Made by a program: the position numbers and the translations under genes | Virus record (IMG/VR): IMGVR_UViG_3300036823_000120 | Location: 30,583 to 94,582 of that record | Direction: 5' to 3' (one strand) | DNA from: a virus | DNA length: 64,000 bases | In this document: in pieces, positions 45 to 22,887 of the stretch | Layout of the letters: every line of letters begins with the position of its first letter | How positions within the stretch are numbered: position 1 is the first letter of the stretch | The notes under the pieces: generated by a model | Databases searched by the model: none | Told to the model about the DNA's origin: nothing | Seen by the model: the letters and a program-made list of their open reading frames with translations, nothing else

Positions 45-147
45 TGGACACGTCGGGATCGAACCCGCACACGCGATTTAGTGCCATCTTACTTGCCAAT
101 GGTACTTACTTATTAGATTTCTCATTGGATTAATCGCAATCGTGCCC
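45..147 (-). ncRNA. tRNA-like RNA with Ala-type acceptor stem (G3:U70, A73) and T-loop, lacking a normal D arm and anticodon arm
   Basis: Minus strand GGGCACG...CGTGTCC-A forms a 7-bp acceptor stem. GGGTTCGATCCC T-arm is imperfect. Internal helix GCGATT/AATCGC encloses ~55 nt. Confidence 0.55.
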
Positions 148-1276: not shown

Positions 1277-1752
1277 GCAGCACCAGCGTAGGTGTAGTTA
1301 TCGTATACGTCGCAACTCATCCAACCATAAGAAGCAGGATAAGCAGCACAACCAGCAGAGGAGGCATAACTACCAGAAGGAAGAAATTGAAAATCATTGC
1401 CCGTATGCCCAAACATTTGCCTTGAGGCACGAAAGCTTGCACAGGATTGGGCGGCTTGAGTAAGACCGGCGTCGAATATGTACGGTCGCAACCCATGCAT
1501 CGCCCTCTTCGCATTGACTTCTGATAGAGCTTCATTCCCTCCCTCCGTAGGCTGTGAGTTGAAACTCACGGGTTGTGAGTTGAAACTCACGGGTTGTGAG
1601 TTGAAACTCACGGGTTGATAAGCCGGCTGTTGAAAATTACTTTGGCCTTGAACCGGATAATACTGAACCCGATTCCTACGAAGCAGTGGACCACTGTAAG
1701 CATCCACACTGGCCAAAAGCACAACCAAGCTACTCAGGATCAAACGCATCAT
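1225..1752 (-). CDS. secreted CAP/SCP-like domain protein
   Basis: RBS GGGAG before ATG at 1752. Signal peptide MMRLILSSLVVLLASVDA. CAP-like ALSEVNAKRAMHGLRP...LTQAAQ...FGH and YAGAAWAMGGDGKRY. Three QPVSFNS repeats. Confidence 0.75.
   Translation of the reverse strand: MMRLILSSLVVLLASVDAYSGPLLRRNRVQYYPVQGQSNFQQPAYQPVSFNSQPVSFNSQPVSFNSQPTEGGNEALSEVNAKRAMHGLRPYIFDAGLTQAAQSCASFRASRQMFGHTGNDFQFLPSGSYASSAGCAAYPASYGWMSCDVYDNYTYAGAAWAMGGDGKRYMHIFVR
1551..1617. repeat. 21-bp tandem repeat x3, coding QPVSFNS
   Basis: gggttgtgagttgaaactcac is repeated directly. Confidence 0.9.
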
Positions 1753-2071
1753 CCATCTCCCTTGACAAGTGAACACTTGACTGCACATTGCATCTAGCAC
1801 AGAACAACACCAAGTTATCCTGACTATTTGTGCCACCTTTACAAAGAGGTGTCACATGCTCTATTGTGGCTCTAGCCACTTTTTCAGTACGATCAGGTGA
1901 TAAAAGGTAATAGTTACTGTAACCACCAATCACCCAACCTAATAAGAGCTTATCACGATCTAGTGCAATTTTCACTTGACAAAGATGACAACACTCATTT
2001 TGTTTGGCCATAAGCATACGTTGTATTTGATACTTACGTCTGCTATGTATCTTCTTTCTCTCTTTACTCAT
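1730..2071 (-). CDS. HNH endonuclease
   Basis: CHLC ... ATIEHVTPLCKGGTNSQDNLVLFCARCN. Confidence 0.9.
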   Translation of the reverse strand: MSKERKKIHSRRKYQIQRMLMAKQNECCHLCQVKIALDRDKLLLGWVIGGYSNYYLLSPDRTEKVARATIEHVTPLCKGGTNSQDNLVLFCARCNVQSSVHLSREMDDAFDPE

Positions 2072-2201: not shown

Positions 2202-3209
2202 TCATGTTCGATATGTGGCTCCTATCGGGCCTGTTAAAAGATGCTTATTGACAATGCATCGTGGAATACGAATTCTTTTCTTCAAAGAATTTCCAACTCC
2301 ATAACGTTGCATACGATAGTATCCTCGTCTTGCATGTGCAGGAAGCTTACGTCCAGTATGCGTGCCAAGTTCACTTACATACTGATCTTCAGTGATAACT
2401 CGAACAAGTGGAGTTTCACGTTGAAGATCATATATAATTGGTTGGGCCAAAAGTTCTATCTTATTATTCTTAGTATGCTTGGTCTTTTTCTGGCACCATT
2501 TCACAAGCTTTGCATACTGGTTTGGTGCTTCCGGACCACACTTCTTGATTCCAACTTCATCAAGAAGTAAACAGTAATTCAATACTGCTCGTCGAACTTG
2601 TGCTTCACAAAGATACTCTTGTTCTGTCGTTGGTAATCTATCAAATTTATCATCAATAGAATAATCAGACTGACACCACTCTTCAAGTTCATCTTTCTCG
2701 TTGCCAGCCCACCAGCTTTTAAGTGAGTGAAACGGTTCTTTGTCAAAGACAATACTATGGATGAAGAAATTTTGCTTCTTATCGTGATGAAGCCACGCAA
2801 AAGCAGGCTTTGCATCACCACAAATTTTCTTTGCAGAATACTCTGCTGGTATTTCAATTACAATAGTCTCAAAAGGCATATTATAATCTTCACAAGCTAG
2901 AGTAAGCTGCATTTCTTCCAACATCTCTAACTGATAGCTTGTTGGTCGAAAGACTTTCGGTCCATTTCCAAAGATTTCGGCTGTAAGAAAGCCTTCAATC
3001 TTCATCAAAAAATCCATATTTGCCATAGTCAATAAGATTCGACCAGCATCATCACTAACCTTAGTTAGTGCTTCATCATTAAGCAGTACAGAAGTTTTCT
3101 TTCCTTCAACTTTCAGGTTCAATACCTTATGTTGACCAATTTCAACATAAGGTTTGATGTCAATTTTCATTTTCTGAAGTAATTCGTTGAGCGTCATTGT
3201 TAAGCTCAC
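2202..3209 (-). CDS. hypothetical protein with C-terminal HxRRGxxR motif
   Basis: 335-aa ORF ending in PAHARRGYYRMQRYG, a motif type common in uncharacterised phage proteins. Confidence 0.75.
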   Translation of the reverse strand: MSLTMTLNELLQKMKIDIKPYVEIGQHKVLNLKVEGKKTSVLLNDEALTKVSDDAGRILLTMANMDFLMKIEGFLTAEIFGNGPKVFRPTSYQLEMLEEMQLTLACEDYNMPFETIVIEIPAEYSAKKICGDAKPAFAWLHHDKKQNFFIHSIVFDKEPFHSLKSWWAGNEKDELEEWCQSDYSIDDKFDRLPTTEQEYLCEAQVRRAVLNYCLLLDEVGIKKCGPEAPNQYAKLVKWCQKKTKHTKNNKIELLAQPIIYDLQRETPLVRVITEDQYVSELGTHTGRKLPAHARRGYYRMQRYGVGNSLKKRIRIPRCIVNKHLLTGPIGATYRT

Positions 3210-3245
3210 TAGTTAAAGCGTTTCATGTTTTAGCTTTTGCCACAA

Positions 3246-3386
3246 TACCTCCGGTCGGACTCGAACCGACAGTTTCTCACAAGACCCTCACAACAAGTGA
3301 GTAGCTTTACAGGTGCCATGCGTCCAACGCTCGTGAGAGACACTTGGGTCTCGACCAAGCTGCTATACCCTTTTGCATACGGAGGT
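3246..3386 (-). tRNA. tRNA-Leu(GAG)-like RNA with a 72-nt variable region
   Basis: Acceptor ACCTCCG/CGGAGGT-A, D stem TGC/GCA, anticodon arm CTTGG-TC GAG AC-CCAAG, T arm GTCGG-TTCGAGT-CCGAC. Variable region is 3271-3342. Confidence 0.75.
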
Positions 3387-3394
3387 GTAGGTTC

Positions 3395-3613
3395 TTAACG
3401 TGGAAGATCATTTTCGCTAATATGAGTACTCCATTTTGCTTTTACTATTTCAAGTGTTTTAATTCTTTTTTGAAGTATTCTCACTGAAAAATTCTCATCC
3501 GCTTGTACTCTACAAGCTTCTAGCGTTGCTATAAAAGCGTCTAAGATATCTTCCTCTCCGTAGCCTTCGTCGAACATTGATTTAAATTTATCCACTAATG
3601 TAATAAGTGCCAT
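3395..3613 (-). CDS. hypothetical protein (MALITLVDKF...)
   Basis: 3' part of track ORF 3395..3865. The upstream part overlaps a tRNA, so the start is moved to ATG 3613. Confidence 0.6.
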   Translation of the reverse strand: MALITLVDKFKSMFDEGYGEEDILDAFIATLEACRVQADENFSVRILQKRIKTLEIVKAKWSTHISENDLPR

Positions 3614-3634
3614 TTTAATGCCCTTATGTTGGAA

Positions 3635-3709
3635 TGTCCCTGGTGGGATTTGAACCCACACTAAACAGATTTTAAGTCTGTTGCCTGCTACCAATTGGGC
3701 TACAGGGAC
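3635..3709 (-). tRNA. trnL: tRNA-Leu(UAA) with short variable loop
   Basis: Acceptor GTCCCTG/CAGGGAC-A, anticodon arm ACAGA-CT TAA AA-TCTGT, T arm GTGGG-TTCAAAT-CCCAC. Confidence 0.9.
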
Positions 3710-3880
3710 GAATGACAGACTACCACCGTTATTTCTTCGGTCTGTCAGCGAATTTTCGAGCGTCATTCCCTTGTTATCGGGATGCAATAGTTCTACCATT
3801 AAGTATTGCACTGAACTATTTAGCGACAGAGACAGTGGCTTTACTCTTGCGAAGCGGTGCTTCAAACAATTCTTCCCAGG

Positions 3881-22817: not shown

Positions 22818-22887
22818 CACCCCGATAGAGAGTCGAACTCTATTAACCAAACTTTGTAAAAGATGGTTAAATACCATTATTCGGAGC
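22818..22887 (-). ncRNA. degenerate tRNA-like RNA
   Basis: Acceptor GCTCCGA/TCGGGGT, T arm TAGAG-TTCGACT-CTCTA, D-loop remnant AATGGTA, long helix TAACCA/TGGTTA. Confidence 0.5.

Follow-up and report, generated by a model that had tools for sequence, protein, structure and literature searches.

The variable arm of class II tRNAs, among them the leucine tRNAs of bacteria and phages, is usually 10-24 nt long, and to our knowledge there is no decoding tRNA with an arm above about 24 nt. Leucylation in E. coli relies on A73, the A15-U48 pair, G18G19 and A20a, and the leucyl-tRNA synthetase (LeuRS) of this species needs neither the anticodon nor the long arm: charging is not correlated with the sequence or the fold of the arm, and charging persists in a tRNA-Leu that has been deprived of the long arm as well as of the anticodon stem-loop (PMC9976931). 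Oversized tRNAs have been reported in Lak megaphages, where the inserts, termed "enigmatic introns", are predicted as introns under eukaryote settings and are identical across cohorts (Devoto et al. 2019, PMC6784885). In bacteriophage T4 an RNA of 139 nt, species 1 RNA (rnaC; NC_000866 70908-71046), is encoded in or beside the tRNA genes and has a T arm near its 3' end. Y RNAs of the YrlA type (RF02553), which are bound by Ro60/Rsr, join a tRNA-like module to an extra helix. Allo-tRNAs are defined by their acceptor-T branch, which is 8/4 or 9/3, together with a D arm resembling that of tRNA-Sec (Mukai et al. 2017, PMC5389517).

The element considered here is a whole tRNA-Leu(GAG)-type gene of 141 nt, placed at 3246..3386 on the minus strand of the window, i.e. 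of the whole 64,000-nt stretch of DNA that was analysed. The source record comprises 94,582 bp with 37% G+C and is rated complete by CheckV. The gene lies in a 185-nt gap between the ORFs 3395-3614(-) and 2202-3200(-), and no signal of an own promoter or terminator beyond chance was found. Two ordinary phage tRNAs, Ile(TAT) at 286-359 and Leu(TAA) at 3635-3709, are encoded on the same strand and likewise without CCA, the latter at a distance of 249 nt from the element. All parts of the element are given below on the minus strand. The 5' strand of the acceptor stem (ACCUCCG, 3380..3386) is 100% complementary to the 3' strand, CGGAGGU, which together with the discriminator A73 (at 3246) occupies 3246..3253; the pairing probability is 0.89-1.0, and CCA is not encoded. 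The bases U8 and A9 follow the acceptor and lead to the D arm, UGC-AAAAGGGUAUA-GCA (3361..3377), with a 3-bp stem and an 11-nt loop of leucine type, containing A14, A15, G18G19 and A20a. Separated from it by G26 is the anticodon arm, CUUGG-UCGAGAC-CCAAG (3343..3359), with a stem probability of 0.58, the anticodon GAG at 3350-3352 and C33 at 3353. The T arm, GUCGG-UUCGAGU-CCGAC, is located at 3254..3270 (pairing probability 0.73), and between it and the anticodon arm a variable region of 72 nt is accommodated (3271..3342). In the acceptor, D, anticodon and T arms 20/20 stem pairs are of Watson-Crick type. The original prediction had described a tRNA-Leu(GAG) with perfect 7-bp acceptor, 5-bp anticodon and 5-bp T stems, C at position 33 and a variable region of 72 nt at 3271-3342, and each of these statements agrees with the anatomy found on the minus strand.

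The body of the element resembles the class II leucine tRNAs of bacteria and phages very closely. The 7-bp acceptor, the 5-bp T stem and the T loop UUCGAGU, which fits UUCRANY, are those of a class II Leu tRNA (RF00005), forming together the 7/5 acceptor-T branch, and U8, A14 and the G18G19 of the D arm are in place as in other tRNAs. The 3-bp D stem with a large loop, A73, A15-U48, G18G19 and A20a are shared as well, the arm begins 1 base past the anticodon stem and ends 1 base before the T stem, and GAG is a leucine anticodon. Unlike these tRNAs, the element has an arm of 72 nt instead of 10-24 and C33 instead of U33, and is reported neither by the Rfam tRNA model nor by default ARAGORN. In the anticodon loop, for which 7 nt, U33 and a purine at 37 are expected, UCGAGAC was found, deviating by C33; A37 is acceptable, although position 37 of E. 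coli tRNA-Leu(GAG) is G. The variable region, expected to reach up to about 24 nt, exceeds this limit and is about three times the usual maximum. Apart from arm length, U33 and database score, the element is, judged by its sequence, a putative leucine tRNA in all tested respects.

The likeness to the other described RNAs is partial. As in Lak megaphages, a phage tRNA gene has been enlarged by an insert of obscure nature and is missed under bacterial tRNA settings; unlike the Lak inserts, the one studied here occupies the variable region, and the collections searched contained no further copy of it. Species 1 RNA of T4 is similar to the element in its size of about 140 nt, its place in or beside tRNA genes and its T arm near the 3' end, but its predicted fold contains no cloverleaf body and no anticodon arm, and no sequence similarity between the two was found. 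The combination of a tRNA-like module with an extra helix recalls the Y RNAs; however, the element ends in an acceptor stem and a Y RNA in a Ro-binding stem, and the reading as a Y RNA was rejected since the phage has neither an RF02553 match nor a TROVE gene. With allo-tRNAs and phage tRNAs of the 8/4 type the element shares a non-canonical character and a long variable arm, and some of them are phage-encoded too. An identity as allo-tRNA was dismissed because the branch of the element is 7/5 and not 8/4 or 9/3; the arms of allo-tRNAs are also far shorter than that of the element.

Standard programs do not recognise the gene. Neither default ARAGORN nor Rfam tRNA (RF00005) reported the full-length element, even at E<=10. 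When the arm was trimmed to 5-24 nt, all versions were called tRNA-Leu(gag) by ARAGORN, and it can be concluded that the arm only is responsible for the failure of ARAGORN and Rfam. A covariance model built on the element scored highest, with 39 bits, where other phages encode a tRNA-Leu. In a strict frame scan of the genome (T arm, 7-bp acceptor and U8) the element and Leu(TAA), the ordinary tRNA with these features, were the only ones recovered, and nothing was recovered in 30 shuffles; tRNA-Ile was left out owing to a T-stem mismatch.

The 72-nt arm is closed by a helix of two 12-nt strands, GUCUCUCACGAG on the 5' side (3330..3341) and CUUGUGAGAAAC on the 3' side (3272..3283). The helix had been named in the original prediction and is present, but 11/12 positions are paired and not 12, with one G.U among the pairs and one C.A mismatch. 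Among 200,000 shuffled inserts only 0.046% had ends pairing at >=11/12 positions. Two hairpins had been predicted inside the arm. CUCAC-UUGUU-GUGAG (3287..3301) is indeed formed with P 0.97, whereas GCGU-UGG-ACGC (3320..3330) can fold but is weak (P 0.38-0.47), and its G is the base of the last pair of the closing helix. Fold z-scores against shuffles were -1.5 for the whole 72-nt insert and -0.2 for the inner 48 nt. With the interior at chance level, the sub-hairpins provide no evidence of a designed domain. The tRNA frame and the closing helix exceed chance and the branched interior does not, so that the closing helix is the sole non-random part of the arm.

The arm is also self-repetitive. 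The word CUCAC/GUGAG occurs 4 times in 72 nt (p ~0.015), and a direct repeat of 7 nt, UUGUGAG, is present in copies 11 nt apart. Because of these repeated words the inner hairpin is regarded as a second copy of the closing-helix word, nested within the arm, and the pattern suggests, as the simplest origin of the arm, that the hairpin of a usual class II arm was duplicated within itself; the duplication step itself we infer. In the predicted ensemble the acceptor pairs with a probability of ~1, the T stem of 0.73, the anticodon stem of 0.58 and the arm helix of 0.55-0.59. A competing helix is predicted with P 0.40, in which GAGAC (the anticodon and positions 37-38; 3348-3352) pairs with GUCUC, the first five bases of the closing helix at the start of the arm (3337-3341). 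Such an alternative helix would hide the anticodon. Other identities of the arm were considered and rejected. A multi-copy mobile element (MITE-like) with terminal inverted repeats is contradicted by the absence of a second arm copy in the genome or the fetched loci. A tRNA nested in the arm was considered for its length of 72 nt and its cloverleaf-like minimum-energy fold with a CUGUAAA loop, but the T-like loop UUGUUGU is non-consensus, the "anticodon" stem has 2/5 pairs and RF00005 gives nothing. No known RNA family was matched in the arm in Rfam at E<=10.

The element behaves as a singleton in the collections searched. When 3100-3800 was compared with GenBank phages by blastn, the sole match was to the adjacent tRNA-Leu(TAA). 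Three patterns were scanned in IMG/VR, exact or gapped (T arm with acceptor; anticodon arm with T loop; acceptor frame with a 95-125 nt gap), and no copy of the element was obtained; the single match sharing the acceptor stem is a tRNA-Ile of an unrelated phage (L161). BLAST and the covariance model of the element, the latter proposed in the original prediction as a check, were applied to 44-50 related IMG/VR records (50 for the covariance model) and returned matches at the level of the T arm or ordinary tRNAs only. For the downstream flanking protein 40 homologues were obtained, headed by one at 64% identity and two at 47-49%, and the loci of its more distant homologues (IMG/VR, JGI metagenomes, GTDB genomes) contained no counterpart of the element. 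Relatives based on the terminase comprise 45 IMG/VR contigs at 41-61% identity, in which the element was located neither by BLAST nor by the covariance model. In G001, G012, G015 and G033 no counterpart of tRNA-Leu(GAG) was found. The insert sequence itself had no second copy in GenBank phages, in the IMG/VR pattern scans or in the 50 related records.

Other oversized or remodelled genes with a tRNA shape occur in the same genome and in its relatives. At 45-147 (-) of the window, 140 nt downstream of tRNA-Ile, there is an element of 103 nt with the acceptor GGGCACG/CGUGUCC (G3.U70), discriminator A, a 6-bp helix around ~55 nt and a defective T arm (CGGG-UUCGAU-CCCG). An element of 70 nt at 22818-22887 (-), directly after a strong hairpin, has a 7-bp acceptor-like stem, the T arm UAGAG-UUCGACU-CUCUA and a 7-bp central hairpin, and is devoid of a D arm. 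In the same genome, 2.4 kb beyond the window (G000:C1:28087-28166 (-)), ARAGORN missed a tRNA-like gene of 80 nt whose acceptor, D and T arms are good and whose discriminator is A73; about 30 nt, with a possible stem GUCCA/UGGAC and an 11-nt loop, replace its anticodon arm and variable loop. The syntenic relative G001 (92.7 kb) carries an intergenic tRNA-framed element of 142 nt (L002:8066-8207 (+) = G001:C1:71468-71609 (-)) with a 7-bp acceptor, U8, T arm and A73. It was rejected as an orthologue, since it agrees in size and frame but has an unrelated interior and lies elsewhere. In G015 tRNA-framed genes of 130, 121 and 95 nt are found among normal tRNAs (L094:658-787, 858-978 and 1537-1631 (+)); the 130-nt gene reads as tRNA-Leu(AAG) with 57 nt at 31/32, beside the anticodon loop, and the 121-nt gene has a UAA anticodon-like loop and ~45 nt inserted 3' of the D arm. 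No similarity was detected among the inserts of the oversized elements, or between them and the arm studied here. Most tRNA-like elements of this lineage retain the acceptor, D and T arms and differ on the anticodon side; the exceptions are the 70-nt element, whose D arm is not typical or is missing, and that of 103 nt with its defective T arm. Found in this genome, in G001 and in G015, oversized or remodelled tRNA-shaped genes are a recurring and fast-changing trait of the lineage.

With regard to charging, the E. coli set of leucine identity elements is complete in the element (A73, A15-U48, G18G19 and A20a; sequence compared with PMC9976931). By analogy with the E. coli enzyme, the overgrown arm would sit at the one site where LeuRS is indifferent. 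Among the leucine codons of the phage ORFs CTT is the commonest (32%), followed by TTA with 27%, and CTC accounts for 7%; ATA makes up 22% of the isoleucine codons. The ordinary phage tRNAs serve TTA (Leu(TAA)) and ATA (Ile(TAT)), and the GAG anticodon of the element matches CTT. The leucine-type body, the identity elements and this codon match suggest that the element began as a useful decoder. Uridine at position 33 is almost invariant in tRNAs, and its replacement by C could be explained by evasion of host anticodon nucleases, in analogy to the proposal made for altered anticodon loops of other phage tRNAs (PMC10264068).

The reading preferred here, to which a probability of roughly 0.45 is given, is a class II tRNA-Leu(GAG) whose arm was overgrown by self-duplication and which would still be matured and leucylated, the arm being a passenger and the RNA a poor decoder. 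It is based on the pristine body, the Leu(gag) calls on the trimmed versions, the covariance scores on tRNA-Leu genes, the full leucine identity set, the match to the CTT codon and the common strand with the other tRNAs. The passenger character of the arm is suggested by the single family of words of which it is built and by an interior without fold signal. The arm would have grown to 72 nt, most likely via nested duplication of its own hairpin, and would have acquired no functional module. For expression, maturation, charging and decoding we infer the following course. The element would be transcribed together with its same-strand neighbours, its 5' end cut by RNase P and its 3' end trimmed. 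No match to the CCA-adding enzyme family was found in the phage, and CCA would be added by the host, whose leucyl-tRNA synthetase would charge the RNA. When charged, it could serve CUU/CUC, probably with low efficiency given C33 and so bulky an arm. Against the reading as an overgrown tRNA stand C33 in place of an almost invariant U33, A37 and the fact that no homologue was found. A branched 12-bp helix may also collide with the adjacent tRNAs in the ribosome, and in about 40% of the predicted ensemble the anticodon (GAGAC) is paired with the start of the arm.

Somewhat less probable, but a close rival to the overgrown tRNA, is a pseudogene, in which a recent insertion or duplication in the arm and the change of U33 to C ended decoding and left an RNA without a role, due to be lost. 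Such an origin agrees with a singleton among GenBank phages, IMG/VR patterns and 50 related records, with the lack of a tRNA-Leu(GAG) counterpart in the four relatives named above and with C33; the shuffle-like interior fits as well, a self-repetitive arm is expected of a slippage or template-switch product, and degenerate tRNA-like remnants exist elsewhere in the genome, for example that with a defective T arm at 45-147. Nevertheless, the four body stems are perfect and the tertiary and identity bases intact, so any inactivation must have been very recent. The insert is moreover placed exactly so that the cloverleaf survives, with the closing helix in register, phage genomes are compact, and in the relatives tRNA-framed genes of excessive size, their acceptor, D and T arms intact, are met repeatedly, which does not look like uniform decay. 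The same recurrence (80 nt in this genome, 142 nt in G001, 130, 121 and 95 nt in G015) may be cited for the idea put forward in the original prediction, in which the tRNA body is a scaffold displaying a 72-nt functional RNA domain (a protein handle, a decoy, for instance of a defence that attacks tRNAs, or a ribosome modulator) and thus represents a new phage ncRNA. The intact body combined with a C33 that argues against normal decoding would suit a scaffold, T4 rnaC is likewise a stable tRNA-cluster RNA of 139 nt with a T arm, and the alternative pairing of the anticodon with the arm (P 0.40) could be a switch. This idea found no positive support and is considered unlikely. In the collections searched the arm has no homologue; it appears self-duplicated, its interior has no fold signal and behaves like a shuffled sequence, and the other oversized elements have inserts with no detectable resemblance in sequence to the arm or to each other. 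As for partner genes, no TROVE/Ro60 (PF05731) match was found in the phage and no YrlA (RF02553) match in the whole phage at E<=10, and the ORFs neighbouring the element gave no match to a protein family linked with RNA. The claim of a strong candidate for an undescribed class of phage ncRNA loses ground also because oversized tRNAs of Lak phages are in print (PMC6784885) and T4 possesses its T-arm-bearing RNA of 139 nt, so that the class cannot be called entirely undescribed.

An RNA that is made, matured and leucylated, and whose arm works as a handle gripped by a protein of the phage or the host, or as a switch hiding the anticodon, would form, together with the other oversized tRNA-framed genes of the lineage, a fast-evolving class of chargeable tRNA mimics; this too is improbable. 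Far less credible is the removal of the insert, either by intron-like excision or through cleavage of the 12-bp helix by RNase III, with a normal or two-piece tRNA-Leu as the product. The Lak megaphage tRNAs with inserts termed enigmatic introns (PMC6784885) offer a precedent, and the 130-nt gene of a relative reads as a tRNA-Leu(AAG) with 57 nt just by the anticodon loop. On the other hand, an insert of 72 nt is below the size of group I/II introns and, as had been correctly predicted, too short for self-splicing, and no Rfam intron or ribozyme family was matched on the element at E<=10. The phage has no match to RtcB, RNA ligase or tRNA-intron endonuclease families. The intron model of ARAGORN (-i), a poor Val(cac) fit with a 57-nt intron and a weak stem, was rejected for this reason together with the lack of an Rfam match and of splicing genes. 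We also know of no splicing at the variable loop in bacteria.

If the RNA of the overgrown tRNA-Leu is charged and used, a leucine tRNA is able to carry an arm ~3x the known maximum; this would set a new limit of tolerance for LeuRS, EF-Tu and the ribosome and reveal a natural site at which engineered tRNAs could receive insertions. Should the RNA go unused, the gene is a snapshot of decay or remodelling of a phage tRNA gene. The element joins scattered tRNA-shaped phage genes of excessive size, such as T4 species 1 RNA and the Lak inserts, which are missed by standard tRNA finders. The weight of the finding is modest, since on present evidence it is one unconserved example.

Some further tRNA genes and tRNA-like sequences were encountered near the locus and among the phages examined. 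The neighbouring tRNA-Leu(TAA), window 3635-3709 (-), has just 75 nt, a 5-nt variable loop and a class I shape, with the leucine-type D arm and A73 kept; short tRNA-Leu(TAG) genes of similar build were found in distant phages (L159:1501-1574). In a locus with a homologue of the downstream gene, an 83-nt tRNA-like element (L014:2086-2168 (+)) lies ~480 nt upstream of this homologue; its fold z is -3.0, its similarity to tRNA-Sec is weak (29 bits, under the cut-off), and it has a 6-bp D stem and no normal anticodon arm. Typical lengths are exceeded also in L161, a fragment of an unrelated jumbo phage, by tRNA-Thr(TGT) of 85 nt and tRNA-Ile(TAT) of 92 nt (2410-2494 and 3313-3404 (+)). Their acquired arms have ~17 and ~25 nt, the anticodon loops are normal and CCA is encoded. 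Thr and Ile tRNAs are normally of class I and this pair has class II shapes; as both still score as tRNAs with 59-61 bits, growth of the arm does occur in phage tRNAs. Finally, the tRNA-bearing region around the element contains a free-standing ORF of an HNH endonuclease (113 aa, window 1730-2071 (-)), 1.2 kb downstream of the element; in T4, too, homing endonucleases are found among the tRNA genes (segB).
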